A stretch of 64,000 bases of DNA, taken from Potamilus streckersoni. Lineage: Eukaryota. The position numbers were made by a program, and so were the translations under genes. The notes under the pieces are model-generated. The model was not told the DNA's origin. It saw nothing but the letters and a program-made list of their open reading frames with translations, and did no database searches. The stretch is from assembly GCA_016746295.1 (NCBI GenBank), contig JAEAOA010001935.1, positions 2,866,024-2,930,023 of the forward strand. Direction: 5' to 3'. Below, piece after piece: positions 5,428 through 61,440 of the stretch. Position 1 is the first letter of the stretch; the number at the start of each line of letters is the position of its first letter.

Positions 5428-5590
5428 AACTCCAGTCCAAAATATAACACTACAGGCCAAATATAACACTCAAGGATAAATATAACACAAGTCAAATATT
5501 ACATAACAAACAAAATATAAGTTTCCAGGCTAAAATATAACACTTCAAGTCAAATATAACACTAAAAGCCAAATATGACACTCCAGTCAC
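5428..5590. repeat. Roughly 20-22-bp tandem repeat (CCAAATATAACACTNNAGG), left part of an array split by an inserted element
   Basis: Repeated ..AAATATAACACT.. units. The same satellite resumes at 5890-6215, after the 300-bp element. Confidence 0.85.
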
Positions 5591-5885
5591 TCCACATCTC
5601 ATCCCTTTTGATTGCTGTACTTTTTGTTAAAGAGCTTATGGAGAAACTTTATTAAATGGATGTTGGAAGTCTTTTTAGCTTGCATTGATTGATTAAAAAA
5701 AACATGTGACACATTTACACTATTGATCTCCATAAGAGCTGACATTTTATGATAAATCTCATTTATACAGATTCAACAGATGCAAAAGTACTCACTGTGT
5801 TTGCGTGCAAACATTTTCATGCCTCTGTCACAATTATATAGAGTTTATATTGTGTTACTAGTGTCCTGATGTCCTGTTATCATGT
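5590..5885 (+). mobile_element. Copy 2 of the roughly 300-bp dispersed element, inserted inside the AAATATAACACT satellite
   Basis: Homologous to 195-495. Satellite units of the same family lie directly on both sides (5428-5590 and 5890-6215). Confidence 0.75.
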
Positions 5886-5889
5886 CACA

Positions 5890-6215
5890 AAAAATTTCTC
5901 CACTTCAGGTCAAATATACTGGTATCCCTGCAAGCAAAATGTAATACTACAAGTCAAATATAACACTTAGATAGCCAAATATAATACTCCAGTCAGATAC
6001 AACACTCTAGGCCAAGTACAACACTATGAGCTAAATATAACACTCCAGGCCAAGTACAACACTATGAGCTAAATATAACACTCTAGGCCAAGTACAATAT
6101 GAGCTAAATATAACACTCTAGGCCAAGTACAACACTATGAGCTAAATATAACACTCTAGGCCAAGTACAACACTATGAGCTAAATATAACACTCCAGGCC
6201 AAAAATTCACTACAT
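5890..6215. repeat. Continuation of the AAATATAACACT satellite, with a roughly 40-44-bp higher-order unit (GGCCAAGTACAACACTATGAGCTAAATATAACACTCTA)
   Basis: Direct tandem copies in 5995-6210. Same core motif as 5428-5590. Confidence 0.85.
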
Positions 6216-6611
6216 TTTTTAGCAGGAAACTCCGGCTCAAGCATTAAGTTTCAAAATTATAACATTCTGTAATCTTAATTGGAATAAATTTAGGATCTTG
6301 AACCTTACAGATTTTCTTGATTTCTCTTCATGCAAACCAATTTTCATTTATATATTGATGCTATATTTGGGAATATTTTGGAATCTGAGTTTCTTGATCT
6401 AAATGTTTTGAGATTAGCAGGCCTGTAATGAGCACAAACTAATATATTCACAGACAACATTGATAAGATTTCTCTACTGGAATTTTAAATATACAGTGAT
6501 TACCTTAAGCTGGTGTCTGAAGTTCTTGGCATGCTTTTTCTTATTTTCTCACATCCAGGCTATAGAAACCAATGCCTGTCAAAAATAGGGCTCCAAGTGG
6601 ACAACTTGCCT

Positions 6612-7200
6612 AAGTCCTGTACAGATCACTGACATCTCACTTCTGCATGGGTTTGAGTCTCAGTAAGGCATGAACAGATCATTACCATCTCACTTCTGCA
6701 TGGGTTTGAATCTCAGTAAGGCATGTACAAATCACTGACATCTCACTTCTGCATGGGTTTGAATCTCAGTAAGGCCTGAACAAATCACTGACATCTCACT
6801 TCTGCTTGGGTTTGAGAATCAGTAAGGCCAGAACAAATCACTGACATCTCATTTCTGCATGGGTTTGAGTCTCAGTACGGCCTATACAGATCACTGCCAT
6901 CTCACTTCTGCATGGGTTTGAGTCTCAGTAAGGCCTGAACAAATCACTGACATCTCACTTCTGCATGGATTTGAGTCTCAGTAAGGCCAGAACAAATCAC
7001 TGACATCTCACTTCTGCATGGGTTTGAGTCTCAGTAAGGCATGTACAGATCACTGACATCTCACTTCTGCATGGGTTTGAGTCTCAGTAAAGCATGTACA
7101 GATCACTGATATCTCACTTCTGCATGGGTTTGAGTCTCAGTAAGGCATGTACAGATCACAGACATCTCACTCTTGCATGGGTTTGAGTCTCAGGCTCGGC
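6612..7200. repeat. 61-bp satellite (..ACAGATCACTGACATCTCACTTCTGCATGGGTTTGAGTCTCAGTAAGGCATGT..), about 10 copies; the monomer is homologous to the 5' head of the adjacent SINE-like module
   Basis: Head-to-tail repeats. The last monomer runs directly into the module at 7185. The monomer motif GGGTTTGAGTCTCAG matches GTGAGTTCAAGTCTCAGG and GTGAGTTCGAGTCC in the other two module copies. Confidence 0.85.
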
Positions 7201-7340
7201 CAGTTTGGGTATGTGAGAAAGCTTGCCAGTGGCTTCCCGTGATTCACTGGCTCTTCTTGAGTTCTTTCTCCATCAGATGTACCACTATGCATAGATAATC
7301 ATGTACTGAAAAATGACATTAAACCCAAAACAAAAGACCT
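7185..7340 (+). mobile_element. SINE-like module copy 1 (GGGTTTGAGTCTCAGGCTCGGCCAGTTTGGGTATGTGAGAAAGCTTGCCAGTGGCTTCC...TACTGAAAAATGACATTAAACCCAAAACAAAAG); its 5' head is replaced or amplified as the 61-bp satellite
   Basis: Alignable, at about 65-70% identity, to 15655-15850 and 61535-61745, and to nowhere else. Tandem arrays of different families lie immediately upstream of all three copies. Confidence 0.65.
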
Positions 7341-7850
7341 GTAAAAAACTAATGAAATTCCAATTTCATTGGTTGAATCATTCTATCTGATACAGATGTG
7401 TCATTGATGACAGGTCTAAATGATCTGCAGAAGATCCAAATGACATTTATTAAGTACTTCTTGTTTTACTGGTATCATTTAAAGTTCAGTTTTATTTTTT
7501 TAAACTGAAATGTCATTCACTTGATGAAAATCACTCGGATAAATCCCATCAGAAAAACAAGAAGTTTCCATGATGTAAAACATACAATTTATATTCAGCA
7601 AAAGGTTCATGGGCAGACAATTTGTACAACACCACCACCCATGTGACCTAGACCTATTCATGCCTTAAGATAAATCAAAACACCCTCTTTTTAGAATGTT
7701 TTAAGGTTGTGAGTATAAAACAGAGATTACTAGATAAAAATAGATTATATAAAAAGAGGGTTCTTTTAAAAATATTTTGGAGCTTTTATATTTCTTATTT
7801 CATTGGGTGATTTCCCCCAAAACATTCTGTGATTTCCCCCAAAACTGATA

Positions 7851-8032: not shown

Positions 8033-8063
<31 letters not shown>

Positions 8064-8425
8064 TGTATGTATGTATGTATGTATGTATGTATGTATGTAT
8101 GTATGTATGTATGTATATATGTATGCATGTATGCATGTATGTATATGTACATGTATGTATGTATGTATGTATGTATGTATGTATGTATGTATGTATGTAT
8201 GCATGCATGCATGCATGCATGCATGCATGCATGCATGTATGTATGTATGTATGTATGTACGTAAATGTATGGATGGATGGATGTATGTATGTATGTATGT
8301 ATGTATGTATGTATGTATGTATGCATGCATGCATGCATGCATGCATGCATGCATGCATGCATGCATGCATGTATGTATGTATGTATGTATGTATGTATGT
8401 ATGTACAAACATAAGTATGTACATG

Positions 8426-8459
<34 letters not shown>

Positions 8460-8585
8460 TGTATGTATGTATATATGTACATGTATGTATGTATGTACAT
8501 GTATGTATATATGTATGTATGTACATGTATGCATGTATGTATGTATAATGCCTGCATGCATGCATGTATGTATGTTAGTATGTAT
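8030..8585. repeat. Compound tetranucleotide microsatellite (ATGT)n/(ATGC)n/(GGAT)n, about 550 bp
   Basis: Long runs of TGTATGTA and GCATGCAT blocks. All ORFs in 7955-8783 are low-complexity artifacts. Confidence 0.95.
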
Positions 8586-8594
8586 GAATGTATG

Positions 8595-8610
8595 TATATC
8601 TGTATTATTA

Positions 8611-8712: not shown

Positions 8713-11017
8713 AACTGGTCATGATATGGTTTGTCAAAATCAGAAAGGGAAATAAGTTTGTCCTGTCATACCTCACAAAATAATACCAAATAAAAAATGC
8801 AGAAGTAAATTTCCAGTTGTTATGAACTTACCAAACAAATTATTATCTGACACTAGATGAAAAAGGAATATTATTTAGTAATTAATTAATAATCATTTAA
8901 ACTGGATTGTACCTTTGTTGTTACATTAGCTAGCATAATTATGTAATTTAAGAGGATACACCTGTCATGGAAAATTTTGTTTTGTGGGTTCAACACCATT
9001 TTTCAGTAGATGAAAGGCTATACATTGCAGCCAGTATATTTGGTAGAAGACAAACCTGGGAAAACTCACAAACCAATGGAAAGTTACTGGCAAGCTTTGT
9101 TACATACCAGCATTTGTCAAGCCGAGACTCTAACCCACACAGACAAAGATGATAAGTCAGTGATCTGTCGGGGAGACAACTCATCCACCTGAGGCCACAC
9201 TGTCATTAGAGAAAACTCAAAGTATGACAAAATTTGCCCATTGTGTGCACTGTTATCTTGTACATATAGATTCAATAGTCAAGTGAAATGAAGAAAGGTT
9301 TGTACATGTTATGAGCAGGTTTTCATTGCTGTCTCAAGGTTGCATAAGAAAATTAGAAAATAACATACAATAACATCATTTTTATCTCTTTTTTTTGTCA
9401 CATTTAATGACACCAGAACACAAAAGTGTCTATATTGTGCCAACAAATATTAATTGTAATTTAAAAATAATTATATATTTAAAAGTATTTATACCCTTTG
9501 CATTACTTGTCCATAATTTGTAATCAATTACAATTACTGATTACCTTTTTTGCAGGAATTGATTACAATTACAATTTTTTATTTCAATTACTTAATTGAT
9601 TACTTTAATTCATTACTGTACTACACTGTAAAGGGCAAACCAAGCAGCCAAAGCTACCCAGCAGTCACCCATTTCTGAATAGAAGATTCCATATACTGAC
9701 CTCAAATATTGTGTGAATTAACATGTTTTTCATATTGACAAAATATGTAGAATGGAAATTCCATAAACAGGCATAAAAACATCCAACATTGTTCTGTGCA
9801 AAATGTGAATTAACCAATGAGAACTGTGAGCTGTGACAGACTGAACAGAAGTAATGTAAATGTACTCAAATTATGTGGATATAAAAGTACATGTAATTAA
9901 TTACTTCAGTGTGAAAGAGTAATTGTAATCAACTACAACAAGTAATTTTAATTTTAATTCATTGCCCTTACAACAGTAAAATACAACACTGGCCTTTGCA
10001 TTACCCATTATTCAGGGGGACTGTAGAGCAGCTTTGACTGCTTCATTTTAATTCTAAATAAATGGTTTTTTACAAGTGGAGAAAAGAATGGATGAACATG
10101 ACTTTAAAAATAATAAACATTACAATTGATGTATTAGATAAGTCATAATGGTAAATAAGACATGAATATTTTCTTTAAGAAGGATGCTTGTAGTTGAAAG
10201 AGCTGATATAGGACAGATTTTAATGTATTATATAGAATCAACTACTATGGCAGTTTTAATCTGACATCTGATGCCTTCTTGTCAGTCTGTAATCTCTCAC
10301 ACACACAAACACACAGTTACATGCACACACACAAACACAGCCTGTGAAGGAATCTACACATGTAGACATGGTCTGCATGTGGATACTGTTGACTTTAAAT
10401 GAGGTAAACACAGTTTGGAATGTAACTTTTGTCAGGTAGATGGCATACAGGTATGTTACAACTCCCGCTACTTTGGCTAAATGCCACTGTGAAGGCTAAG
10501 GGTCTCCACCGTCTTTTCAATCCCAGTTAAATGTGCTATCAAAATAGACACTGTCAATATTTCCCCCAAAGTCCTATTGGAGTAACAGGTAGTCAGCCAA
10601 TAAATGGTGTGTACTGCCATTCAGTATTGCCTCCAAAGACTGAATCAGTTATTAGTAACTGTTTCTCACAGAGTGGCAAGTTGGATTTAGTTCTTTTTAT
10701 GATTTTGTTCTAGTTTATGTGGATAAATTCAGGACATCTAAGAGTCATTCAATAAGGTATGAATATTGATTGATTATTGACTATTGGTTAAGGTTCAATT
10801 TAACAGGTGAAGTTGATAATTACTATCATAGCGTGTTGTCAAAATATTTCCTGACAACACTACATTGGCTTTTGGATGCAATATTGTCATTCCTAGGCAT
10901 AAAATGTGATGATACAGCAGTTTACTGTAGTATGCATTTTCAGAATAAACATGAAGCTAGCAATTCATTCATTGACATACAGTCTACATTTAAAGTCAAA
11001 ATCAAGTGATCACCTTA

Positions 11018-11885: not shown

Positions 11886-12034
11886 TGACTGTCATAGTAG
11901 TACATATTATATTTGCAATCACATGACATTGTATTGCCATCACACTGTGGTCAAAAGCATGATTAATATATGGAAATTTCCATTGTGTGTTGTTGAATTA
12001 TCCTGAAGGAAATTTTAATATGTCATATATGTTT

Positions 12035-12315
12035 GTGTGTGTGTGATTTAGATTTTTTTTAAAAAAAATTCAGTCATATCGCTACAATATCTGCAGAGTG
12101 ACAGTTTATAGTGATGTCTAGCACTGGGGCTTCATGCCACAGACATGTGGCACGATGTCACAACCAGTCCCATTATCCTGACACAGGGCTGACCAGTCCT
12201 AACACTAACCTCTTAATGCTGTTAGTACCATTTTTTAAAGTCTTTGGTATGATTTGGCCTGGGTTCAAACCCATGACCTCCTGCATCCAAGGTAGATGTT
12301 CTAACCACTAGGACA
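12035..12315 (-). mobile_element. tRNA-derived SINE with a (CA)n tail (family A), copy 1
   Basis: The reverse complement of 12240-12315 gives a tRNA-like head, GCTCTGGTGTCCTAGTGGTTAGAACATCTACCTTGGATGCAGGAGGTCATGGGTTTGAACCC, with A-box-like TAGTGGTTAGAAC and B-box-like GGTTTGAACCC motifs. The body is homologous to the copies at 25140, 26010, 40150 and 55245. A (GT)7 tract at 12035-12049 gives a CA tail on the element strand. Confidence 0.7.
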
Positions 12316-12354
12316 CCAGAGCAGTTATTATTGTCTTAAGTAAAAGCATACTTT

Positions 12355-12520
12355 CAACAAATGAAAGTAATTGTCACAATAATTCAACACTTTCCTTGTA
12401 CCAATGAAAGTAATTACCACAATAATTCAACACCATTTCCTTGTACCAATGAAAGTAATTACCACATTAATTCAACAATGTTTCCTTGTACAAAGAAAGT
12501 AATTATAAATTAATTCAACA
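12355..12520. repeat. Roughly 55-bp tandem repeat (CAATGAAAGTAATTACCACAATAATTCAACACCATTTCCTTGTAC), about 3.5 copies
   Basis: Direct repeats visible in 12340-12525. Confidence 0.8.
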
Positions 12521-12548
12521 CTGTTTATTTGTATTTTATGCCAACACA

Positions 12549-12770
12549 TATTGTCTGTACTTGCCTACAGGTTGAGTCCAACTGCAAACAACATAGGCTC
12601 ACATAAAGTGCTGGCAGGTTAGGGTCTATAATGTTTGTTCTATTGATTATCTTGACAAACTGCATAGATTCAGATCTGCCAGCTCATTATGCAATGGCAG
12701 GTTTGTGCATGTGCAGATTGCTGTTGGATTTCAAATAACTGAGTACATACCATATTATCCAAAGGAACAA
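12549..12770. mobile_element. Palindromic MITE-like element copy (..CAGGTTGAGTCCAACTGCAAACAACATAGGCTC...CAGATCTGCCAGC...GGATTTCAAATAACTGAGTACATACCATAT)
   Basis: The left terminus is nearly identical to the family consensus GTTGAGTCCAACTGCAAACAACATAG. The internal part shows palindromic symmetry. Confidence 0.7.
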
Positions 12771-13984: not shown

Positions 13985-15660
13985 TAAAATAAATGGATCC
14001 ATACATTACACTTAGTACTACTATCACACAATATCAAGGGATCTATACAGTCCACTAATTATTACTATCAGATAATATCAAGTGATCTCTACATTACACT
14101 TAGTATTACTATCAGATAATATTAAGTGATCCATACATTATACTTAGTATTACTATCAAATAATATTGAGTGATTCATACATTATATTTAGTATTATTAT
14201 CAGATAATATTGAGTGATCTCTACATTACACTTAGTATTACTATCAGATAATATTGAGTGATCTGTACATTAAACTTAGTATTACTATCACATAATATCA
14301 GGTGATCTGTACATTACACTTAGTATTACTATCACATAATATTGAGTGATCTCTACATTACACTTAGTATTACTATCAGATAATATTGAGTGATCTCTAC
14401 ATTACACTTAGTATTACTATCAGATAATATTGAGTGATCTCTACATTATACTTAGTATTACTATCAGATAATATTGAGTGATCTCTACATTACACTTAGT
14501 ATTGCTATCAGATAATATTGAGTGATCTCTACATTATACTTAGTATTACTATCAGATAATATTGAGTGATCTCTATATTATACTTAGTATTACTATCAGA
14601 TAATATTGAGTGATCTCTACATTATACTTAGTATTAATATCAGATAATATCAAGGGATCTATACATTACACTTAGTATTACTATCAGATAATATTGAGTG
14701 ATCTCTACATTATACTTAGTATTACTATCAGATAATATTGAGTGATCTCTATATTATACTTAGTATTACTATCAGATAATATTGAGTGATCTCTACATTA
14801 TACTTAGTATTACTATCAGATAATATTGAGTGATCTCTACATTATACTTAGTATTACTATCAGATAATATTGAGTGATCTCTACATTACACTTAGTATTA
14901 CTATCAGATAATATTAAGTGATCTCTACATTATACTTAGTATTACTATCACATAATATTGAGTGATCTCTACATTACACTTAGTATTACTATCACATAAT
15001 ATTGAGTGATCTCTACATTACACTTAGTATTACTATCACATAATATTGAGTGATCTCTACATTATACTTAGTATTACTATCAGATAATATCAAGTGATCC
15101 ATACATTATACTTAGTATTACTATCAGATAATATTGAGTGATCTCTACATTACAATTAGTATTATTATCACATAATATTGAGTGATCTCTACATTACACT
15201 TAGTATTACTATCACATAATATCAGATGATCTCTACATTACACTTAGTATTACTATCACATAATATCAGGTGATCAGTACATTACACTTAGTATTACTAT
15301 CACATAATATCAGGTGATCTGTACATTACACTTAGTATTACTATCACATAATATCAGGTGATCTGTACATTACACTTAGTATTACTATCACATAATATCA
15401 GGTGATCAGTACATTACACTTAGTATTACTATCACATAATATCAGGTGATCTGTACATTAGACTTAGTATTACTATCACATAATATCAGGTGATCTGTAC
15501 ATTACACTTAGTATTACTATCACATAAGTATCAAGTGATCCATTTATTACACTTGGTATTACTATCACATAAATATAAAGAGATCCATTCATTACCGGTA
15601 CACTTAGTATTACTATCACATAATATCAAAGTGATCCATACATTACTCTTTGTATTTCAC
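13985..15660. repeat. 44-bp satellite, subfamily A (CATTACACTTAGTATTACTATCAGATAATATTGAGTGATCTCTA), about 38 copies, with CACATAATATCAGGTGATCTGTA variants
   Basis: ATTGAGTGAT recurs at a 44-bp period (14341, 14385, ...). The 71-aa ORF at 15490..15705 is an artifact. Confidence 0.95.
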
Positions 15661-15850
15661 CTCTGTGTGAGTTCGAGTCCATGCTTGGCTAACGTGGTTA
15701 AGTGAAAAAGCCTGCCACTGTAGTTTCTCATGGGTTGGCAGTTCTTCCCAGGGTTTTCCAGGGTTCATCCTCCATTACTGATACTGGCCACCATGTATAG
15801 CCTATCTTGTGCTGAAAAATGGCATTAAACCCCATAACAACAACATCAGT
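15640..15850 (+). mobile_element. SINE-like module copy 2 (..CTCTGTGTGAGTTCGAGTCCATGCTTGGCTAACGTGGTTAAGTGAAAAAGCCTGCCACTG...GTGCTGAAAAATGGCATTAAACCCCATAACAACAAC), located between two 44-bp satellite subfamilies
   Basis: Homologous to 7185-7340 and 61535-61745. Contains a tRNA B-box-like GAGTTCGAGTCC at its 5' end. Confidence 0.65.
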
Positions 15851-16475
15851 TTGTATTACAATCACATAATATCAAGTGATCCATTCATTACACTTAGTAT
15901 TGCTATCACAAAATATTTAGTGACTAATTCATTACACTTATTATTAATATTACATGATATAAAGGGATCTATTCATTACACTTAGTATTACTATCACATA
16001 ATATTAAGTGACTAATTCATTACACTTATTATTACTATCACATGATATAAAGGGATCTATTCATTACACTTAGTATTACTATCACATGATATCAAGTGAT
16101 CAATGCATTATCCTTAGTATTACTATCACATATTAAAAAAGGGATCCATCCATTATACTTAGTATTCCTATCATGTGATATAAAGGGATCCATCCATTAT
16201 ACTTAGTATTCCTATCATGTGATATAAAGGGATCCATCCATTATACTTAGTATTCCTATCGTGTGATATAAAGGGATCCATCCATTATATTTACTATTCC
16301 TATCATGTGATATAAAGGGATCCATCTATTATACTTAATATTCCTATCATGTGATATAAAGGGATCCATCCATTATACTTAGTATTCCTATCATGTGATA
16401 TAAAGGGATCCATCCATTATACTTAGTATTCCTATCATGTGATATAAAGGGATCCATCCATTATACTTAGAATCA
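15845..16475. repeat. 44-bp satellite, subfamily B (CATTATACTTAGTATTCCTATCATGTGATATAAAGGGATCCATC), about 14 copies
   Basis: GGGATCCATC recurs at a 44-bp period (16141, 16185). Shares the core CATTAYACTTAGTATTMCTATCA with the 13985-15660 array. Confidence 0.9.
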
Positions 16476-18394: not shown

Positions 18395-19255
18395 TTGCTC
18401 ATCTCATAATGCACCAGCAGATTTTGGTCTTTATCTTTTTGTACTTATGGTTTCAAATACAGATCCTGATCTGCCAGGAAATAATACACCAGTAGTTCTG
18501 GATCAAAGCTCTTCACTGTACTACTAATTTCAATGACAGACCTTGATCATATAAAGCACTAGCAGATTTGGGTCTATGTTCATTGTACTTTTTATTCAAA
18601 CACAGATCCAGCTGTCATATAATACACCAGCAGATCTGGGTCAAAGATCTTCACTGGACTACTGGTTTCAAGCACAGACCCAGATCTCTCATCATATGAT
18701 ACACAAGCAGATCTGGGTCAGGGCTTTTAATTGTATTATTGATTTAAAGCACAGACCCAAATCTGTCACACAAGCAGATCTGGGTCCGGGCTTTTAATTG
18801 TATTATTGATTTAAAGCACAGACCCAAATCTGTCACACAAGCAGATCTGGTCCAGCCTGTTATTGATTTAAATTGATCATGTCAAATTGATCATATTGAT
18901 TTAAAGCACAGACCCAGATCTGTCATATGATACACAAACAGATCTGGGTCCAGGCTGTTAATTGTATTATTGATTTCAAGCACAGAGCCAAATCTGTCAT
19001 ATGATAAACAAGCAGATCTATGCCCAGGCAGTTTATTGTATTATTGATTTAAAGCACAGACCCAGATCTGTCACACAAGCAGATCTGGGTCCAGGCTGTT
19101 AATTGTATTATTGATTTCAAGCACAGAGCCAAATCTGTCATATGATACACAAGCAGATCTGTGCCCAGGCTGTTTATTGTATTATTGATTTAAAGCACAG
19201 ACCCAGATCTGTCACACAAGCAGATCTGGGTCCAGGTTGTTAATTGTAATGTTGA
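18395..19255. repeat. MITE-derived satellite: about 12 tandem monomers of 67-74 bp (ACAGACCCAGATCTGTCACACAAGCAGATCTGGGTCCAGGCTGTTAATTGTATTATTGATTTAAAGC), with a 151-bp dimeric higher-order unit toward the right end
   Basis: The monomer is the palindromic core (GACCCAGATCTG...CAGCAGATCTGGGTC) of the MITE-like family. GGGCTTTTAATTG recurs at 67 bp (18721, 18788), and AAAGCACAGACCCAGATCTG recurs at 151 bp (19041, 19192). Confidence 0.9.
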
Positions 19256-19321
19256 TTTCACAAACTCAATACATGTATGCTATGGCAGCTCTTAGTCTTT
19301 CTTATTCATTGATGGGTACAT

Positions 19322-19402: not shown

Positions 19403-19545
19403 TATCATTAACAGTTTTGTTTCTAGCCTGGTTACAGGAGAGTTCTTTACCCTGTACTCCCTAGGTGGTGTCCTGCCTTCTCTGTGCTGCATCATGCGTG
19501 TCTTGGAGGCTGCCATGTCTTAAATCTCAGAATGTTTAATACTGT

Positions 19546-19768
19546 ATATACTCACTTTTTAAAGTTGAGTCAAACTGCAAACAACAAAGATCCTGATCTC
19601 CCATAGCATCATATGACTATAGATCCAGGTCTATGTTGTTTGTTCTACAGATTAGTCCTAACAAACAACACAGACACAGACAGACCAGCCAGTGCATTAT
19701 GCACCAGATGATCAAGGTCTGTGCAGTTTGCAGTTGGACTGAACTTATAAGCGAGCATATATGGCACA
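19546..19768. mobile_element. Full-length palindromic MITE-like element copy (TATATACTCACTTTTTAAAGTTGAGTCAAACTGCAAACAAC...GGTCTGTGCAGTTTGCAGTTGGACTGAACTTATAAGCGAGCATATATGG)
   Basis: The best-preserved copy: both termini are mutual reverse complements, and it consists of two palindromic halves of about 100 bp each. Confidence 0.8.
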
Positions 19769-19894
19769 TAAAAAAATGTAATATTCAACATGTGCATTTT
19801 GTGCATTCAACTTATCAACCTCTGCTTTGTCACATACTGTACATCTAATACTGTATAACAAATACTCATATACTGAGGTTGATGTCTTCAATAG

Positions 19895-24055: not shown

Positions 24056-25139
24056 AACCTTGTCTTCTTTTGTAGAAATCAAACTGTTGGAAAGATAAAA
24101 CACGAAAAAAATCACTTCCTTCTGTAATTTAATATATTTAACTTTCAAAGGAGAAAAATAGTTGAGTACTCAATGTCTTTTTGAAAGAGTGGAAAATATT
24201 TCTGTTGACATGATTGAATATAATTAATTTATTTGCAAGTAAACATGTCACATATAAATGTCAAACTTAATCCAAACAGTGTCTAAATTATAACATAAGA
24301 TTTTTTTCCCCTCCCTTACCTGCAAGACAACTTTATCCCTATTTAATTGTATAGAGCCTCTTCAATTACTTTTGTGGTAGATAACATTGACCAAGATCTC
24401 CTTGAATTAAATATTTATGTTTTGTTGATGGCCTTGTGAAAGATAACATGGCTAAACAAGCAAAATAAAGGAGATTTCTTTTTCTGTCTTTTCTTATAAG
24501 TTTAAATTTGCTAGGCCATAAAGAATTTGCAAAACTCTTGTCATATCTTGATAGCTAGTAGCAATAAAGGATGGGTGTACCATTGAGCATGGTTCTATTC
24601 TCAGAGAATATAATACAACTGTATATTCCATAACCTGTTCTACCACAAAGCTAATATGGAATTCTTTATATGCCCCACTTTTTCTCCAACCCATTCAGTT
24701 TTGTGTTTAAGTCATGCAGTTTTCAACCTCTGTGGGTGGGCTTTCATGTTCAATTGATATATCTCTAATTTCTTTTCTTACCTTTATATATTTTCTTAGC
24801 CTTACAGCATAATTTTTGATGGGTGGGGTGGAGTTGGGGTGATGCCCAAACTACATTTGTTGGTCATGGAAGATTATTACACTTTGTTCCAAAAAATGAG
24901 GAAAATGTAAATGTACCTGGAGTTTGATTATTATTTATTAGCACCTCAGTAAGCTTTTTCTGGCCACACATTTTTCATATAATAGTAGAATTCTGAGTGA
25001 CACTGTTCATAAAAAATTAAATGTAAGTTCATTTTAAGTCTTCAACAATTTTGTGAACATTCAACTGTTCAGACCTTACACTTTATATTTTGTAAATTGT
25101 CCCACTAATTTAGAAATTCATTGATTGGCAAACTGCTCC

Positions 25140-25400
25140 AGTGGCCTAATACATTAAAACAATGCCTCAGATGATCATAGTTTCAAACCCTGGCTGAGCA
25201 TGGTGTATAAAAATGGTACTAGCAGCTGCCTTGCTTTGTGCTCAGCATTAAGAGGTTAGTGTTAGGACTGGTCAGCCTGGTGTCAGGATAATGTAACTGA
25301 ATGGGTCCTTACACAGGATATTGTGACCTGGGTGGGACATCACATGTCTTCAGTATGATGCCCCAGTGCTAGACATGACTATACATTGCCACAGCTGATG
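25140..25400 (+). mobile_element. tRNA-derived SINE (family A), copy 2; head degraded, 3' tail absent
   Basis: The body ..AAAATGGTACTAGCAGCTGCCTTGCTTTGTGCTCAGCATTAAGAGGTTAGTGTTAGGACTGGTCAGCCTGGTGTCAGGATAATGT..GGGACATCACATG..CCCCAGTGCTAGACATGACTATACATTGCCACAG is homologous to 40150-40476 and to the minus-strand copies. Confidence 0.65.
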
Positions 25401-25840: not shown

Positions 25841-26040
25841 TTAGCAATCCACATAAGTGTGTGTGTTTGTGGTGGGTGTTGGTGTGTGTGTATAGCAATT
25901 CATATAAGTGTGTGTGTGTGTGTCTCTGTGTGTGTGTTTATGGTGGGTATTGGTGTGTGTAGTGTGTGTGTATGTATGTATGTATGTGTATGTGTGTAGC
26001 AATCCATATAAGTGTGTGTGTTGGATTTTTAACACAGCTT
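25841..26040. repeat. (TG)n-rich minisatellite with the recurring unit TAGCAATCCATATAAGTGTGTGTGT; forms the CA-rich tail region of the adjacent minus-strand SINE
   Basis: The unit ..GCAATYCATATAAGTGTGTGTG.. occurs three times, interspersed with GT runs. The 64-aa ORF here is an artifact. Confidence 0.8.
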
Positions 26041-26290
26041 TAACAATTTTTCCAGTTATATTGCTATGATGTGAGCAATGTGGCAGTTTGTAGTGATGTC
26101 TAGCACTGGGTCATTATGCCACAGACATGATGTCCCACCCAGTCACATTATCCTGACACCAAGCCGACCTGTCCTAACAATAACCTCTTAATGATGAGTG
26201 CCAAGCAATGCAAGCTTTTGGTACCATTTTTATAAATCTTTGGTATGACTCAACAGGGAATTGATCCTGTGACCTCCTGCATCCAGTTTT
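26010..26290 (-). mobile_element. tRNA-derived SINE (family A), copy 3; 5' head partly truncated
   Basis: GT tract, then TTGGATTTTTAACACAGCTTTAACA...GGCAGTTTGTAGTGATGTCTAGCACTGG...CCTCCTGCATCCAG. Collinear with the copies at 12035-12315 and 55245-55528. Confidence 0.65.
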
Positions 26291-26834
26291 AAAATAAACA
26301 GACCCTGATCTGCCTGTTAGGCTGATGAATATGTCCCAACAATGACCATCCTAAAACTTTTTATTGGAAGAGATTTATCAGCAGGTGATTTGATAATGGA
26401 GTTGGATTAGCACTTTTGGGCAAATGTCAAACAAAGATAACTAAGGTAATTGCATGTGGCCATTTTAAATCTGTTTCATTTTGTCATCATTTCATAATAA
26501 ATACTGTTAGACCTTTTTTACACTCCAGAGTATCAGAGTAAGGTGTATGAAATTTGCAGTTGAACAAGTTCAACCAACATTTACAACTCTTGAAGGCTGA
26601 GATTTCAACTAAGTATGATCTCTCTGGTTGGCAAACCATCAACTTGAAATAGCAACCACTTTACCTAACCTCAGGCAGAAATGGGGATCAAAGAGTAGTG
26701 GATAAGCATGTTACCACTGCAATATCCAGGCAACTTAATAAAAGTCAAGGTTTCTGGTCCTTGTATGTATTAAACAACTGCTGATGCATTTTTCCATGAA
26801 ATATAACTCATTTATAGTTTAAATAAATATCACT

Positions 26835-39968: not shown

Positions 39969-40149
39969 AAAAAGACACTTTTACTACCTACCTGTTTTAG
40001 TTAATTCTGTTTAACTTTTAATATAACTTCTGAGCAAATTAATTAAATATATAAAATTTAGGAATTAAACTCACATTAGTATCATATTTTTACAATTTCA
40101 TAAAAAAATGTTGACAAATCTAAAACTGATGAATAAGGAGGAAATTAAG

Positions 40150-40446
40150 CTCTTCTATTGACCTAAGTAGTTAGAGTGTCCACCTTGGATGCAGGAGGTA
40201 ACAAGTTCGAACCCCAGCCAAATCATAAGACTTACAAAAATGGTATGAGCAGCTGCCTTGCTAGGTGCTCAACATTAAGAGGTTAGTACAAGGATTGGTC
40301 AGTCTGGTGTCAGGATAATGTGACTTGGTGGGACATCATGCTGCATACCTGTGGCATGATTTCCCAGTGCTAGACATCACTATTAACTGCCACACTGCAG
40401 ACATCATAGCAAAATGAATTGTTAAAGCTACTTTTAGAATCCATAT

Positions 40447-40476
<30 letters not shown>
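40150..40476 (+). mobile_element. tRNA-derived SINE (family A), full-length reference copy with a (CA)15 tail
   Basis: The 5' head, GACCTAAGTAGTTAGAGTGTCCACCTTGGATGCAGGAGGTAACAAGTTCGAACCCCAGCC, has an A-box-like AGTAGTTAGAG motif and a B-box-like GTTCGAACCCC motif. The body is homologous to the other four copies. It ends ..CAGACATCATAGCAAAATGAATTGTTAAAGCTACTTTTAGAATCCATAT(CA)n at 40446-40475. Confidence 0.75.
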
Positions 40477-40477
<1 letters not shown>

Positions 40478-40527
40478 TTCTAGACAGGTCACTCATAAAT
40501 GAAAAATTTGCTTTTCTTTCACGTTTT

Positions 40528-40748
40528 ACCATATATGCTTGCTTATAAGAGTCCTCCTGCAGCAAGCAGCTCAGACCCAGATCTGCCATTGCATAATGCT
40601 CCAGCAGATCTGAGTCTGGCAGTTTGTTAAGAATAATCAGTAAAACAAACAATATATACCCTGATCTGCAGGCATATTAAGTCATGGCAGATCAGGATCT
40701 TTATTATTTACAGTTTTATGTGACTTATAAGTGAGTATATGTGGGACC
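40528..40748. mobile_element. Full-length palindromic MITE-like element copy (CCATATATGCTTGCTTATAAGAGTCC..CAGACCCAGATCTGCCATTGCATAATGCTCCAGCAGATCTGAG...GTGACTTATAAGTGAGTATATGTGGG), about 50 bp downstream of the SINE tail
   Basis: The termini CCATATATGC..CTTATAAG and CTTATAAGTGAGTATATGTGG are reverse complements. Internal paired CAGATCTG motifs. Confidence 0.8.
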
Positions 40749-43700
40749 CATAAAGGCTTAATAGCAATTGAAGATGATAAAAGCAATCATTTTATAAAGC
40801 ACTTAGGATTTTGTCCTGAAATCCAATTATTTGACTGGGTAACAGACAGACAGTAAGGTAAAGGTAAAATATCCTGCAGTGTTCATCAATCAATTTTAAA
40901 TTACAATAACCTGTGTGCCATATGTTTTATGTTTATACACAAGCTTATATCTTTGTAATTCATTATCAACCCATTTTCAGATAACTTCCAAGTATTTTTG
41001 ACAAGGAGGTTCATTTTAATCATACCAACTTATACATTTTTGTTGTTAGATTGTTATGAACATCCATTTAATTTTGAAACATGAACATAAAAGCCAATTT
41101 AGACATTCATAGATTTGCTTTACTATTAAAGTTTGATTTTCAAATGCAAAGCAATCTTTATTCAAGTTTAAACTCAGCTGGAAATATCATTCATCTATTG
41201 AATGTCTAATTCACCCAATTTATTTTCTTGAATTGAAGTCATATTTCATGGCACATAAACTTGTAGACTGATGCCTGATATTTTTTGCAAATTATTTTTC
41301 TGTTGTGTTATAAAATTGGAACACATGAACTAAATTATGTCAATAGTTTTGGGATCATTGGATACACACAAGGTCATGAAGGTCATAACTACAGTTCACT
41401 TGGCTCCAATACTGATGTACTAGAGTGTTCCAATACAGAGATAAGAGCCCTATTAGTTTCTGGAGAGAGTCAATATTTACAAAGTGCTATGGCCTTAGTT
41501 ATCAATGGCTGAAACATTCAGGATGAGTTTACTATTGGAAGACTTGGTTACTGTTTGTTGGACTATTAAATTTGTTCACCTTTGATCTTAGCCAGTAAAT
41601 CTGGGAGCTAACTTGTTGAAAGCTGTAAATTATTAGCACTTTCAGGAATGTATTATGTATGTTCAGTCTGTTCAACTGTCAGTTTTAAACATGAATTGGA
41701 AATAATTTTACAGTTTCCACACAAACTGAATGAGAGAAAAAAGACAAACAGGTTTGCTCAGAGGAATTAGATATTTCACTCTTGGTACTTGTAATAATGA
41801 TTTGATTAAACACATCTTTTATTTACACATTAAAACAACATGTACCCTCCTCACCCAATGTACATGTTTAATTGCTGGCATGTATTTTCAGGCCCAGCCA
41901 CATCCCTAATACACTAAGACAATTGTCACTTTGGATTTAAATAACCAATAATAAAAAGTTGTAAACTTTTTACTATCCCCTCATTAAAAAAATTGTTATG
42001 GGATACACTGTATAGTAAATATATTTTATGTTGTTTATATATTTATTATGTCTTCATTACACTCTCATTATCTTGGACCATTTTTACACATACACTCATG
42101 AAATTATGTTTATTCATTTTGAGGTAACTGCCAAAATTAGGTTGCTGTGATTTAATGTTTATGCTTGAGCTATTATTTCATTATACCTTTAATATTTTGA
42201 ATCATATTATATCTATACTGCATCTATGAAAGAGAAACTGATAATACTAAAACTGGGTCACTGTGACCTAATTATCTGCTTTAGTGATTTATGTATTTTC
42301 AGCTATTTTTTTATTATGCCTTTACTTTTTGGATGATATTACATCTAAGCTCATCAAGCCTTTTCAGTGGACATAGCTTTTGTGGAGTTACTCCACCAAA
42401 GTAATGTGACCTGATTCTCTATCAAGAGTGATTTGTATATATTCTGTATACTCCATAATACAAAAAAGATATGTTACTTTGACTTAATTGACAGGCTTGA
42501 GTATCATTTGTATTTTCAGCAGTTAATTTATTACACATCTGTAACTGTTATATTTTTATTCATTATACTTTGTATGTGGACACATATCCAGGAAGTTCCT
42601 GGACTCGGAACCAATGGGTTACAAATTTGAAAACTGTCCATACCAGCTTGGTTCTCTAACCAAAATGCCCCACTCCCATTACCTCTGAATAAGTTATCTA
42701 TACCAGCCTGTATATTGTTGACTACTTCCTGTTGGGGAGGGATTGTATTTATGAGTAAACAACTTGTTTCTTGTTTTATTTTTGATTTTGGTTCTCTATC
42801 TGATACAATGATCTTGCTGTCAGACCTATTTTGGGGTAGTTTCAAAATTATCACCCTTTTAAAAGAAACTGAATTTTAGTGGAGTATTTTTTTAAAAATT
42901 CTACCCAAATATAAATAGGAAACAGGAGTGATAATTAAAATCAAGATTCTGATTAACAATTAAAATCTCACTTTCAGCACTGTATCATTTTTAATGCTTT
43001 CCAGTTTTATTGTTTTATTATCCATGACAGTTATAATTTATTGTGAAGTAATTTTTATGCTTGTTCCATTAATTTAAGACAGGCATTTCTTGAGTTTAAT
43101 ACTGGTGTACATTATATTCAAATAGGTATGAAAAGAGAGCAGATGTAGGTTGTTTTCTTCTTCTGAAAATAGTTATGTTACTCCCCTCCTTCCCAAAGAT
43201 CAAGTTATTAGTGTCTAAATGTAGTTTGTGGAATGACTAATTTGATTTCTAATCACTTAAAAATGTACATATTATGGCTTCTGGTATGTCTCTTTACAAA
43301 AAAATTGCATTTAATACCTACAACTGATTCACAAAAAGGGCAAAAAAAAATAAAAAATCAAAATTGGGAGGCATTCTGGGTTTATTTGCATGTAAATGCT
43401 TCCCACCATGCCCATAAATAGTCTTACCAAGTTACAATGAAGTGTAAATTATATAAAAAATCATGGTCTTTATTTACATATGCAAGATTGGGTACCAGTA
43501 TGGTACTGTATGGTACAATACAGAACACATGTGAATGATGTTTTGCAAGATCTATGATGTAATTTAGTAGTGCAAGGGAATTTAAAATCACTGACTGGGG
43601 AAAATGTTTGATTTATGATGCACTAGTTATCAAAATGAATGGACTGTTTGTGAAAAAATAAATATTGTATTCATTACTTATTCCATTTTGACCTTATAAT

Positions 43701-44974
43701 AAAAAATGGGTGTTTACCTTATAATTTTTCAGGTTTTGAATTATTACATGCCTCAAGGCAAATTAGTTCCATTGTGCAATTAATTGTCATCCACATTAAA
43801 TAAAATAATTGTAATTTCTTCTTCTTATTATTATTATAATTATTATTATTAATATAATTATTATTATGAGTAGCATGTACTTTTTAAGTGCACTGTATTT
43901 GGTACAAAACTTCTCTATTTTTTATTACATTGTTTACTGTATAATGTCATGAATGAAAGAATACCTGATTCATAGTTACATGTCTTTCATGTCAGTAAAA
44001 TAAAAAAGACTTGTTATTTTGTGTATCGGAATGCCTGTTGTAAATTCAAAAAAAAGGGTTTCTATTATGTACTGTGATTTCACAATTATTGTTAATTGGG
44101 TTTTCATTGATTTATTGGATGATAAAACCACAAACTAAAAATTCCAGTGATCAGTTATCTTTTTTTTAAATTTCCCATTCAATGAAATTAAGTGTATAAG
44201 ATGTAATATTTTATAAAACAAAAACAAATATTAATTTGCACTAAATCATTACTTCTACAGTGCATTTTTTTTAGCAGATGATACATGTTACAGACTTGCT
44301 TTAAGAGTTTTATTAAAGTTTTTCATATATGAAAACCCTCCCCTGTAGCTTCTTGGTGGTATATTGTAAAGCATTTAGACAGGATTAAGTGTCTATGGTG
44401 ATTTACAAGGCACCCATGAACTGCAGGATATTGAACTATTCAGTGCTAGATTTCATTTTAATGTTCAGATTCTGGTGTGATCAAAGGTACTCAATAGTCA
44501 CCAAGTTAGTAGTCTTCAATTGTTTGCCAACTCCTTACAAAGTAAAAAGTCAATAACATCTAGTACATGGGTAAACCTATACATAGGAGTATCATAGTAG
44601 GTAAACTATTTAACACCTTTCTGCTATCATCTGGTCACTTTTATGATGATAAAGGGTTCTTCGGTGCCATCCCCCTCCTGATCAGTGGATGAAAGATAAC
44701 AAAGATGACTCTTTTGATGTTACATTATTTTTAGTCTGGATTTAATTGGTAGCACAGGTAAGGTAGGTCTCTGATTGCAAATTTGCCTTAGTATGTAGAT
44801 AATATGAGAAAACATGCATGCATTCTTTTAAAACAAAAAGTAGCATAAGGTGACAAACAGTCAGTTTCTGCAGCTTTTGCAGTATTGCAGAAAATTTTTG
44901 TTTGCAGCTCTTGGATAGGGTACTTTACATACTGTATATAATGTCTGTGATAATGTCTTGGATAGGGTAATTTA

Positions 44975-45172
44975 CTTACTTTATACACTTCCAAGTTGAT
45001 CCATCTGCAAACAACATAGACATTGATCTGTCATTGCATAATGTGACAGCAGATCGGGTCGTGTTCTACTGATTACTCCTTACCTACTGCACATTATCCA
45101 ATGACAGATCAGGGTCTGTGTTCTACTGATTACTCCTCACCTACTGCACATTATGCAGTGTCAGATCTGTGT
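44975..45172. mobile_element. Palindromic MITE-like element copy (left terminus ..TTTATACACTTCCAAGTTGATCCATCTGCAAACAACATAGAC..), with a 40-bp internal duplication (GTGTTCTACTGATTACTCCTYACCTACTGCACATTAT x2); the right terminus is replaced by the 60-bp satellite
   Basis: Its left half matches the family consensus. After ..CAGTGTCAGATCTGTGTCAGGATGG the sequence continues directly as the first monomer of the 45160-46165 array. Confidence 0.7.
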
Positions 45173-46165
45173 CAGGATGGTACTATACTTTTCATGTCTG
45201 GTACTTCATACTTTTATACTATGCAAGTCAGGATGGTACTATACTTTTCATGTCTGGTACTTCATGCTTTTTTTACTATTCAAGTCAGGATGGTACTATA
45301 CTTTTCATGTCAGGTACTTCATACTTTTGTACTATTCAAGTCAGGATGTTACTATACTTTTCATGTCTGGTACTTCATACTTTTTTACTATTCAAGTCAG
45401 GATGGTACTATACTTTTCATGTCTGGTACTTCATACTTTTTTACTATGCAAGTCAGGATGGTACTATACTTTTCATGTCTGGTACTTCATACTTTTTTTT
45501 ACTATGCAAGTCAGGATGGTACTATACTTTTCATGTCTGGTACTTCATACTTTTTTACTATGCAAGTCAGGATGATGCTATACTTTTCATGTCTGGTACT
45601 TCATACTTTTTTTTACTATGCAAGTCAGGATGGTACTATACTTTTCATGTCTGGTACTTCATACTTTTTTTTACTATGCAAGTCAGGATGTTACTATACT
45701 TTTCATGTCTGGTACTTCATGCTTTTTTACTATTCAAGTCAGGATGGTACTATACTTTTCATGTCTGGTACTTCATACTTTTTTACTATTCAAGTCAGGA
45801 TGGTACTATACTTTTCATGTCTGGTACTTCATACTTTTTTACTATGCAAGTCAGGATGTTACTATACTTTTCATGTCTGGTACTTCATACTTTTTTACTA
45901 TGCAAGTCAGGATGGTACTATACTTTTCATGTCTGGTACTTCATACTTTTTTACTATTCAAGTCAGGATGGTACTATACTTTTCATGTCTGGTACTTCAT
46001 ACTTTTTTACTATGCAAGTCAGGATGGTACTATACTTTTCATGTCTGGTACTTCATACTTTTTTACTATTCAAGTCAGGATGGTACTATACTTTTCATGT
46101 CTGGTACTTCATACTTTTTTTACTATGCAAGTCAGGATGGTACTATACTTTTATGTCTGTAATAC
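45160..46165. repeat. 59/60-bp satellite (CAAGTCAGGATGGTACTATACTTTTCATGTCTGGTACTTCATACTTTTTTACTATG), about 17 copies
   Basis: Head-to-tail copies. The 353-, 352-, 189- and 140-aa plus-strand ORFs are period-60 artifacts rich in F, Y and L, encoded by the low-complexity sequence. Confidence 0.95.
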
Positions 46166-53880: not shown

Positions 53881-54384
53881 TGCAATGTGTCACAATTTAG
53901 TTTTTAATTATTTATTATAGTGGCATGTTTTGTTCGTGTCATTCAGAATAATGAACAAAATTATCATTATTTATGAACAACATCAAGTTCCCATTGTAAT
54001 TAAAACTGCAAGAAGTTGGAATTTCCCCATTGTAATTTTCAGTCAGATGACATCAAGACAATATGCTTTATCCATGGCAAATATCCCTTTCAAATACCAT
54101 CATTCAAATTTCATTTGTTTCAGTTTTCAGAGGCATGTTCAGCTTTAGAAATCACAATTTATGGCCTGGTAAATAATCCTATTGTAAATCAAGCATAATC
54201 CATATGATTTTCAATGTGAAAATAGAACAAGAAATTCAACCTTCCCTGCAGGCAGTAAAACTGTGTTTAATGAGGTGGTTCAAAGTGAAGGTTTTCTCCT
54301 CTTCAGCCAGTTGTGTAAGCCATATTTTTTAAAGCCTAATGTTGTTACAAAGCTAAATATGTTAATGCATAAAAAGCTCCCACA

Positions 54385-55150
54385 TGATAAGATAGAAATA
54401 TTTTAAGATATAGAGTTCCCCATGATAAGATAGAAATATGTTAAGATATAGAGTTCCCCATGATAAGATAGAAATATGTTAAGATATAGAGTTCCCCATG
54501 ATAAGATAGAAATATGTTAAGATATAGAGTTCCCATGATAAGATAGAAATATGTTAAGATATAGAGTTCCCCATGATAAGATAGAAATATGTTAAGATAT
54601 AGAGTTCCCATGATAAGATAGAAATATGTTAAGATATAGAGTTCCCCATGATAAGATAGAAATATGTTAAGATATAGAGTTCCCCATGATAATATAGAAA
54701 TATGTTAAGATATAGAGTTCCCTATGATAAGATAGAAAATGTTAAGATATAGAGTTCCCCATGATAATATAGAAATATGTTCAAATATAGAGTTCCCCAT
54801 GATAAGATAGAAAATGTTAAGATATAGAGTTCCCCATGATAAGATAGAAATATGTTAATGTATAAAGAGCTACCCCATGATAAGGTAGAAATATGTAAAG
54901 ATAATAGAGTTCCCCATGATAAGATAGAAATATGTTAAGATATAGAGTTCACCATGATAAGGTAGAAACATGTAGAAAAATGTTAATGAATAAAGAATTC
55001 AACATAAGGTATAAAAATGTTAATAAAAAAATTCCCAATGATAAGGTAGAAACATATTAATGAATTTGAATTAGGAATTCTCTATGATAAAGTAGAAACA
55101 TTTTAATATATAAAGAGTTACCCATGATAAGGTAGAAACATGGTAATGAA
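54385..55150. repeat. 38-bp satellite (ATAGAGTTCCCCATGATAAGATAGAAATATGTTAAGAT), about 20 copies, degenerating toward the 3' side
   Basis: CATGATAAGA recurs at 54421 and 54459 (38 bp). The later copies (54840-55150) are progressively diverged (GGTAGAAACATG variants). Confidence 0.95.
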
Positions 55151-55244
55151 TAAATAGTTCTCTTTGATATTTTAAGAAAATATTAAATGTTCCACTTGAT
55201 ATGGTAGACATGTTATTGAATAAAAAAAGTTCCCCATGATAAGG

Positions 55245-55528
55245 TGTGTGTGTGTGTGTTTTGGATTTTCAACATAGCTTGAACAGTTTTTTCATATCGA
55301 TATGATGTCTGCAGTATGGCAGTTTATAGTGATGTGATGTCTAACACTGGGGCATCATGTCCCACACAGTCACATTATCCAAACACCAAGCTGACCAGTT
55401 CTAACACTAACCTTGTAATGCTGATCGCCAAGAGAGGAAGCTGTTTGCACCATTTTTATGTCTTTCATATGACTCTGCCTTGGTTTTAACCTACAACTTC
55501 ACACATCCAATTAGACACTCTAACCAAT
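55245..55528 (-). mobile_element. tRNA-derived SINE (family A), copy 5, near full length with a (CA)n tail
   Basis: (GT)8 at 55245-55262, then TTTTGGATTTTCAACATAGCTTGAACAGTTTTTTCATATCGATATGATGTCTGCAGTATGGCAGTTTATAGTGATGT..CTAACACTGGGGCATCATGTCCCACAC.., collinear with the other minus-strand copies. The reverse complement of 55470-55528 gives the head ..CAGTTGCCTAATTGGTTAGAGTGTCTAATTGGATGTGTGAAGTTGTAGGTTAAAACC. Confidence 0.7.
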
Positions 55529-55934
55529 TAGGCAACTGGAGTGGTCCCCATGATAAGGTAGAATAATGTTAGTGAATAAAGAATTGCCTGTGATAGGGAA
55601 GAAGAATGGTAAATTGCATCTTGGTGGATGTTATGTTATGCACATTCATCAGATAGACTGGTTTGTTTTTATTTCAGTAAATAATTAGTTTTTAATTATT
55701 GTGAATCAGTCTTTCAAAGAACTTATGCTCTCAAATTTTTTTTGAGATATTGTCCATGGTACATTTGACCTACAAAAAGACATTACACTATTTAAATAAG
55801 CATGCAAAAGTACTTTATAAGATTTCTTTACCATTGAGCTAGATATTTGTCTTGAGAGCATTCTTAATACAATGATTTGAAATGCAAATATTTGTAGTGC
55901 CTAATGGATTAAACCAGTAATTGAAGATCTATAT

Positions 55935-61230: not shown

Positions 61231-61239
61231 TTTGATTGA

Positions 61240-61440
61240 TTGCATAGTACACCTAACCCTACCATTGTGCAGTAAACCTAACCCTACCATTGCACAGTTA
61301 ACCTAACCCTACCATTGCACAGTTAACCTAACCCTACCATTGCACAGTTAACCTAACCCTACCATTGCACAGTTAACATAACCCTACCATTGCACAGTTA
61401 ACCTAACTCTACCATTACACAGTTAACCTAACCCTACCAT
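61240..61440. repeat. 23-bp minisatellite (CCTAACCCTACCATTGCACAGTTAA), about 8 copies
   Basis: Perfect 23-mers at 61285-61400. Confidence 0.9.

Follow-up and report, generated by a model that had tools for sequence, protein, structure and literature searches.

A family of old SINE-type retroposons in an array-dense stretch of Potamilus streckersoni DNA: an apparent SINE-derived minisatellite, a satellite insertion and a chance-level association with arrays

Introduction

The DNA considered here is a stretch of 64,000 nucleotides from Potamilus streckersoni (GenBank assembly GCA_016746295.1, contig JAEAOA010001935.1, positions 2,866,024 to 2,930,023 of the forward strand), hereafter called the window, in which positions are counted from the first letter. 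When predictions of Tandem Repeats Finder (TRF) with a period of at least 10 bp and a length of at least 100 bp are counted, 109 TRF rows merge into 35 tandem arrays that fill 23.8 kb; this is 37% of the window, a share that rises to 40% when a margin of 30 bp is added. The periods of these arrays run from 19 to 151 bp, most of them are mutually unrelated in sequence, and their density is extreme. Long microsatellites are also present ((TATG)n at 8034-8605, (GTAT)n at 63479-63764 and several (TA)n). Genes were not detected: the 25 open reading frames (ORFs) of at least 110 amino acids in the window are all translated from tandem or simple repeats. Among the arrays lie copies of a dispersed module that resembles a short interspersed element (SINE). 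The original prediction had described three copies of this module, each immediately downstream of a different array, and had read the module as part of a non-autonomous element that carries its own satellite as cargo, in the manner of Helentron-derived elements, or alternatively as an element that inserts preferentially at array ends. We report here that the module very probably represents a family of old, decayed, non-coding SINE-type retroposons of ~230-250 nt, whose associations with arrays would be separate events.

Results

Five copies of the element

A census of the window by blastn and nhmmer yielded five copies of the element, three on the + strand (copies 1, 2 and 3) and two on the - strand (copies 4 and 5). 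The three stretches that had been described as mutually alignable are homologous indeed: copies 1, 2 and 3 (~7178-7337, 15657-15849 and 61490-61739) are recovered by nhmmer with E-values of 1e-28 to 1e-71, and blastn identity reaches 75% over 164 bp between copies 2 and 3, 74% over 86 bp between copies 1 and 3 and 81% over 53 bp between copies 1 and 2. An independent nhmmer profile, built from copies 3 and 4 only, with copies 1 and 2 excluded, recovered copy 2 at E=8.6e-33 (model positions 71-253) and copy 1 at E=9.4e-28 (7150-7337). The two copies on the - strand had been missed:

8969-9196, - strand: copy 4, 228 nt, the most complete copy, in unique sequence (nhmmer E=1.7e-68)
1821-1925, - strand: copy 5, reduced to the 3' part of a related SINE by strong 5' truncation (nhmmer E=4.6e-09, model positions 148-229)

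The count of three out of three copies beside arrays thus becomes three out of five, as both additional copies are free of arrays within 200 bp of their 5' ends: TRF detects no array in the nearest 200 bp on the 5' side of copy 4, and the closest array on the 5' side of copy 5 begins 530 bp away. The copies measure 105-250 nt (~760 nt for copy 1 when its internal array is counted), and none of the five contains an ORF of at least 110 amino acids. Their aligned parts share just 62-70% pairwise identity and the family is therefore old.

Anatomy of the element

All copies carry a conserved 3' block, CTGAAAAATGRCATTAAACCC, and end in a short A/C-rich tail, which reads AAAACAAAAGA, CATAACAACAACATCAG or ACAAAACAAAATTTTCC. 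Their 5' ends fall at positions ~2, 16-20, 65-71 and 148 of the profile of copies 3 and 4: copies 4, 1 and 3 all start within ~20 nt (profile positions 2-20), copy 2 starts at ~65-71 and copy 5 at ~148. A B-box-like motif, GGTTCGANNCC, is found with 1-2 mismatches in copies 1, 2 and 4 (a single mismatch in copy 2) and with 3 mismatches in copy 3. Upstream of copy 4, homology to the other copies stops at the 5' end of this copy, where a direct repeat bounds it.

Target-site duplications, which the original prediction had proposed to look for, were identified as direct repeats of 8-11 bp flanking copies 1, 2 and 4, with a different sequence at each copy. The duplication at copy 2, TTTGTATT, is exact over 8 bp (shuffling P ~0.02). 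Copy 4 is flanked by ATGACAGTGT (9206-9197) and ATGACAGGTGT (8968-8958), which align as ATGACAG(G)TGT with a score matched in 38 of 2000 shuffles (P ~0.02). The candidate at copy 1 is marginal, and the candidate at copy 3, AACAA(G)AAAAT, is at chance level (1079 of 2000 shuffles); it is indistinguishable from chance because the tail of copy 3 is A/C-rich.

Taken together, the common 3' end, the varied 5' truncation, the B box, the A/C-rich tail and the duplications of 8-11 bp bear out the initial label of the module as SINE-like. In the anatomy that we propose, the element would comprise a 5' head with a B box of the RNA polymerase III (pol III) type and a degenerate A-box-like motif, a body, the 3' block CTGAAAAATGRCATTAAACCC and the A/C-rich tail. 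Copying by the target-primed reverse transcription of a long interspersed element (LINE) fits the family, because the 3' end is common, the 5' truncation varies and the duplications are of 8-11 bp; it is from these features that a LINE-dependent step of this kind may be proposed.

The segment that follows the B box, together with the TTCCCAGGGTTTTCCAGGGTTCATCCTCC stretch, resembles the V-domain of vertebrates, and membership of that superfamily may be regarded as a lead only. When the copies were aligned by Smith-Waterman with an approximate zebrafish V-type SINE sequence, the scores lay above those of 96-99.6% of shuffles depending on the copy, which is weak, and nhmmer gave no match to the same sequence. 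The conserved 21-mer CTGAAAAATGRYRTTRAACCC was also sought in non-eukaryotic metagenome and viral contigs and was found at 22 metagenome loci and at no viral locus; in nhmmer the 21-mer alone matches at these loci, so that the occurrences are put down to chance.

Copy 1 and its 53-bp array

The locus of copy 1 is organised as follows:

6575-6585, + strand: candidate 5' duplication of copy 1, CCTGTCAAAAA (10 of 11 positions shared with CCTGTAAAAAA; tentative)
6586-6610, + strand: probable 5' head of copy 1, with a CAAGTGG A-box-like motif (profile of copies 3 and 4)
6611-7193, + strand: internal array of copy 1, 11 x 53 bp (TAAGGCATGTACAGATCACTGACATCTCACTTCTGCATGGGTTTGAGTCTCAG; TRF period 53, 91% matches)
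7194-7337, + strand: body and A/C-rich tail of copy 1, ending CATTAAACCCAAAACAAAAGA (nhmmer, profile without copy 1)
7338-7348, + strand: candidate 3' duplication of copy 1, CCTGTAAAAAA (direct-repeat alignment)

Motifs recur in the array at a spacing of exactly 53 bp, ten times, which gives 11 units, and the identity between units is 83-98%. The unit is a contiguous segment of the SINE, with the B box (GGTTTGAGTCT) and CTCAG at its end, and all 11 units match the profile of copies 3 and 4 at positions ~47-94. The first unit is joined without a break to the upstream sequence carrying CAAGTGG, where the match extends to profile position 20 (6589-6663 matches positions 20-94; the remaining monomers begin at 47), and the last unit passes straight into the body of the SINE (GCTCGGCCAG...). 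The segment repeated in this array is single-copy in copies 2, 3 and 4. Judged from these alignments, the 53-bp array arose by tandem amplification of a piece of the element's own head, B box included, and is in other words a SINE-derived minisatellite. The earlier suggestion that the 5' region of the element is prone to tandem expansion thus holds for copy 1, whose monomer is its own head segment, but not for the other copies.

The candidate duplication encloses the whole composite (6575-6585 and 7338-7348), and the array is most likely internal to the element. We propose that a 53-bp piece of the head (its 3' part, with the B box) would have been duplicated and later expanded to 11 units, the likely mechanism being replication slippage or unequal exchange. 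The outcome would be a composite of the form head-(unit)11-body-tail, probably lying within a single pair of target-site duplications. The opposite derivation, in which the SINE head would stem from a 53-bp satellite, was considered and rejected, since the segment is present only once in each of copies 2, 3 and 4.

Copy 2 and the 44-bp array

The features at copy 2 are:

14002-15656, + strand: 44-bp array upstream of copy 2, including the 5' duplication TTTGTATT at 15649-15656 (TRF)
15657-15849, + strand: copy 2, a 5'-truncated SINE (nhmmer) that starts at ~profile position 65, immediately ahead of the B box AGTTCGAGTCC, and whose tail ends CATAACAACAACATCAG
15853-16470 by TRF, + strand: 44-bp array downstream of copy 2, with the 3' duplication TTTGTATT at 15850-15857

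The three copies first described had all been placed immediately downstream of an array. Arrays do lie on the 5' side of copies 1, 2 and 3, but copy 2 does not mark the 3' edge of its array, which resumes beyond the insertion and continues for 14 further units. The two halves of the array are homologous to each other. The motif TT[AT]GTATT is present at 15604 and 15649 on one side of copy 2 and at 15850 and 15894 on the other; with 15657-15857 taken out, successive motifs lie 45 and 44 bp apart. Among the 46 monomer positions of the array, 43 carry TTAGTATT and two only carry TTTGTATT (15649 and 15850), one at each junction with copy 2. Because the array is found in register on both sides and the 8-bp duplication is unique to the junctions, copy 2 was inserted into an array that already existed. 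Copy 2 is clearly a 5'-truncated SINE placed in a pre-existing 44-bp array with an 8-bp duplication; a truncated copy would have been retroposed into the satellite, duplicating 8 bp of one monomer.

The 44-bp array is itself heterogeneous. Over 14002-16470 the monomer subtype shifts from GAGTGATCTCTACATTA to CAGGTGATCTGTACATTA and then to AAGTGATCCATTCATTA, and the two ends of the array are just ~77% identical. Copy 2 lies within the last subtype block and not on a subtype boundary.

Copy 3 and the 25-bp array

Two features make up the third locus:

61239-61482, + strand: 25-bp array (ATTGCACAGTTAACCTAACCCTACC, 9 units and a degenerate end; TRF)
61490-61739, + strand: copy 3, an almost full-length SINE (nhmmer)

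The array ends at 61468, or at 61482 when the degenerate last unit is included, and copy 3 starts at ~61488-61492; on the downstream side of copy 3 the array does not resume. Copy 3 would have inserted, or may merely lie, a few bp beyond the end of this unrelated array. The 25-bp monomer ATTGCACAGTTAACCTAACCCTACC (61239-61468) contains a stretch, CCTAACCCTA, similar to the complement of a TTAGGG-type telomeric repeat.

The periods of the three arrays had been given as 61, 44 and 23 bp. The value of 44 bp is right, whereas TRF returned 53 and 25 bp in place of the other two, the 53-bp spacing being exact.

Array adjacency and chance

The association of the element with arrays was evaluated on copies 2 to 5, the self-derived array of copy 1 being set aside. 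Two of these four copies lie in an array or at most 30 bp from one, which gives P=0.51 by the binomial, in agreement with 50,000 random placements. For strict edge adjacency of at least one copy in four, P is ~0.10. Because arrays fill 37-40% of the window, the adjacency is at chance level. The original prediction had held that such neighbourhood is unlikely by chance; at this coverage it is not.

Other repeats of the window

Three further dispersed repeats were recorded. A second SINE family is present in five copies:

12031-12340, - strand: second SINE family
25933-26357, - strand: second SINE family
55172-55594, - strand: second SINE family
40102-40511, + strand: second SINE family
25130-25398: second SINE family, partial copy

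On its true strand, this family has a head that is tRNA-like by eye (AGTGGTTAGAG ... GGTTCGAACCC), a body of ~280 nt and a (CA)n tail, and two (GT)n/(CA)n microsatellites (25908-25997 and 40447-40475) belong to its copies as their tails. One head lies ~15 bp from a 45-bp array (12358-12533), and the tail of another copy adjoins the array at 54355-55169.

A miniature inverted-repeat transposable element (MITE) of ~215 bp occurs in ~12 copies, with terminal inverted repeats (e.g., 40529-40549 and 40724-40744) and two internal hairpins of the CAGATCTGGGTC type. Its loci are 731-1005, 1473-1704, 12542-12770, 19489-19789, 40501-40772, 44971-45175, 55900-56196, 60203-60446 and 63015-63307, together with weaker fragments. 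The MITE lies at most 25 bp from unrelated arrays at 4 of its 12 loci, which exceeds random placement (P ~0.002, in a post hoc comparison). If the question of array adjacency fits any element of the window, it fits this MITE better than the SINE. In addition, the arrays of 67, 74 and 77 bp at 18400-19292 are a tandemly amplified MITE hairpin core (nhmmer E down to 1.5e-13), and form a second array derived from a transposable element.

Finally, a dispersed repeat of 299 bp is found at 196-494 and 5599-5887, with 86% identity between the two copies. The copy at 5599-5887 lies between related 19/38-bp arrays (5440-5586 and 5997-6202) and is possibly another insertion into an array.

Discussion

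The proposal that each copy carries its own satellite would make of the module the 3' flank of a non-autonomous element of the Helentron/Helitron type, moving by rolling circle with a central satellite that differs from copy to copy. Copies 1, 2 and 3 do have an array on their 5' side and the array of copy 1 does belong to the element, as such a mechanism would have it. However, the 44-bp and 25-bp monomers have no similarity to the element (nhmmer, nothing at E<=10), the array at copy 2 is found on either side of the insertion with the register kept and a duplication present, and copies 4 and 5 have no array at all beside them. The three monomers (53, 44 and 25 bp) are unrelated to one another and reveal no consistent pairing of flank and array, and comparison of the window with itself detected no conserved left flank upstream of the three arrays. 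Copies 1, 2 and 4 are flanked by direct repeats, at targets that are not oligo-T. No copy or composite was found to have terminal or subterminal inverted repeats joining its ends. The Helitron-type 3' hairpin followed by CTRR, which had been suggested as a diagnostic, was not recovered either: within their final 90 nt, copies 1, 2 and 4 have no hairpin whose stem reaches 6 bp, copy 3 has only an internal, non-conserved one, and the 3' ends read AAGA, TCAG and TTCC. The Helentron-derived non-autonomous elements of oyster (Cg_HINE/pearl, PMC7492417) have subterminal inverted repeats of 11-12 bp, a left flank with an inverted repeat and a microsatellite, a 3' palindrome, no target-site duplication, oligo-T targets and one array family per flank pair. 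Their likeness to the module, in that short satellite-like arrays in euchromatin-like sequence are bounded by a recurring module, is superficial, and every one of these hallmarks that was tested is missing from the SINE copies. We consider the cargo interpretation extremely improbable and reject it; no cargo mechanism ties the element to the arrays.

A preference of the SINE, or of the endonuclease of its partner LINE, for arrays or their edges, or the retention of copies at such places as neutral sites, would likewise account for copy 2 inside an array and for copy 3 at ~10-25 bp from an array end. The figure of P ~0.10 for at least one edge-adjacent copy among four leans the same way, and bivalve satellites with SINE insertions have been reported (PMC5139131). 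But two copies of four is what the 37-40% coverage by arrays predicts (P=0.51), the duplications share no common sequence, and copies 4 and 5 sit in unique sequence. Targeting is thus quite unlikely in our view, and preferential insertion at array ends, the second possibility raised by the original prediction, is not needed when adjacency is at chance level. It might also be that the element is not a SINE, and that the copies are what remains of the 3' end of a LINE after heavy 5' truncation, or some other retroposed fragment, and happen to have their last ~230 nt in common. Any tRNA-likeness of the head is putative, and a common 3' end with varied 5' truncation would suit a LINE as well. On the other hand, the 5' ends of three of the five copies cluster within ~20 nt (profile 2-20), the B-box motif is at the expected place, and homology ends upstream of copy 4 at a direct repeat. 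We hold this explanation to be very unlikely.

The interpretation that we prefer, of an old SINE family with separate array associations, has to be set against several observations that weigh on it. The A box is represented only by a degenerate CA[AG]GTGG motif, located 16-24 nt 5' of the conserved CAGATCAC in copies 1, 3 and 4, and pairwise alignments of the head alone (upstream of CAGATCAC) are not significant. ARAGORN and Rfam (at gathering thresholds, and in E-value mode on copy 4) returned no tRNA and no RNA family; the sole E-value match of Rfam on copy 4, mir-7147 at E=0.46, is weak and meaningless. The Rfam E-value scan was also tRNA-negative on a copy of another SINE-like repeat of the window, whose head looks more tRNA-like by eye, and such tRNA negatives may say little. 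A tRNA ancestry of the SINE head is at most putative, and no partner LINE was seen in the window. As to copy 1, CCTGTCAAAAA and CCTGTAAAAAA align as CCTGT(C)AAAAA with a score that 108 of 2000 flank shuffles equal (P ~0.05), and because this duplication is marginal, we hold a location of the array inside the element to be likely but not certain; the array may instead have arisen at the 5' end of a truncated copy and grown from there. As to copy 3, what links it to the 25-bp array is position alone.

The three situations represented here, a SINE-derived array, an insertion into a satellite and a chance adjacency, are all ordinary and have precedents in the literature, and both SINE-derived arrays and insertions into satellites have been published, including in bivalves. 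The closest parallel to copy 1 is provided by the SINE-derived satellites of squamates (sSats; Vassetzky et al. 2023, PMC10702118), whose unit in snakes, 67 nt long, is the 3' part of the head including box B and some of the body. There as in copy 1, the tandem unit is a sub-segment of the SINE that includes the B box (67 nt in snakes against 53 bp here) and the arrays are short and locus-specific. As in the recognition of sSats, all 11 units of copy 1 are homologous to a contiguous piece of a SINE that is single-copy elsewhere, namely in copies 2, 3 and 4. The two cases differ in host phylum and in SINE family, and the array of copy 1 is a single locus in the window. Tandem-like structures of HCD-SINEs in bivalves, of the form TSD1-(SINE)n-TSD1 (PMC11481361), have a first unit with the full head, inner units shortened on either side and a last unit with the full tail, the whole enclosed by a single pair of target-site duplications. 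This layout, which is also found in the bivalve Scapharca broughtonii (PMC11481361), is that of copy 1 (6575-7348). That survey counted only consecutive SINE insertions of at least 150 bp, whereas the unit of copy 1, at 53 bp, is below this limit and would by the survey's own account have escaped it, and its duplication is marginal. A limpet satellite derived from Nin-SINE (PMC11121367) and older cases of satellites arising from the tRNA-related region of SINE-like elements, tabulated in a review (PMC9659126), are further examples.

For copy 2, the comparison is with the SINE RUDI (V-SINE superfamily), which splits a monomer of the DTHS3 satellite in Donax/Ruditapes clams and leaves the host sequence intact (PMC5139131). 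Both are copy-and-paste SINEs inside a satellite monomer; in the RUDI case there is no target-site duplication, whereas copy 2 has one of 8 bp and is 5'-truncated. The element as a whole follows the same overall head-body-tail plan as the tRNA-derived SINE superfamilies of molluscs known as V-domain (Vhc) and MESC (PMC4758252), in which a pol III head is followed by a body and then by an unrelated tail, and whose terminal repeats are of the (CA)n or (CAAA)n type. The V-SINE/Vhc superfamily is marked by a conserved V-domain, the Vhc block of 39 bp, in its body.

Taken together, these data describe a SINE family that is old and ordinary and lies in a region dense with arrays, with one SINE-derived minisatellite and one satellite insertion, both of them clear. 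A broader view would be that the B-box segment of the family is a recurrent, genome-wide seed of tandem amplification, that the 53-bp repeat is one of a number of minisatellites born from SINEs and carrying a pol III promoter, and that many of the 35 arrays were seeded by transposable elements. A second case of such seeding is visible in the arrays at 18400-19292, which come from the MITE hairpin core; as a general rule for this genome we nevertheless regard the idea as unlikely.

The analysis serves mainly as a correction: where a genome is rich in arrays, chance alone is expected to place a dispersed repeat beside several of them. Before a cargo mechanism is invoked, the junctions need to be dissected, by asking whether (i) the array is present on both sides of the element, (ii) a target-site duplication is present and (iii) the monomer is homologous to the element. 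Copy 1 is the one real link between element and array; it shows cleanly how a segment of a SINE head, B box included, turns into a minisatellite, and may be used as a query for the frequency of SINE-seeded satellites in this genome.

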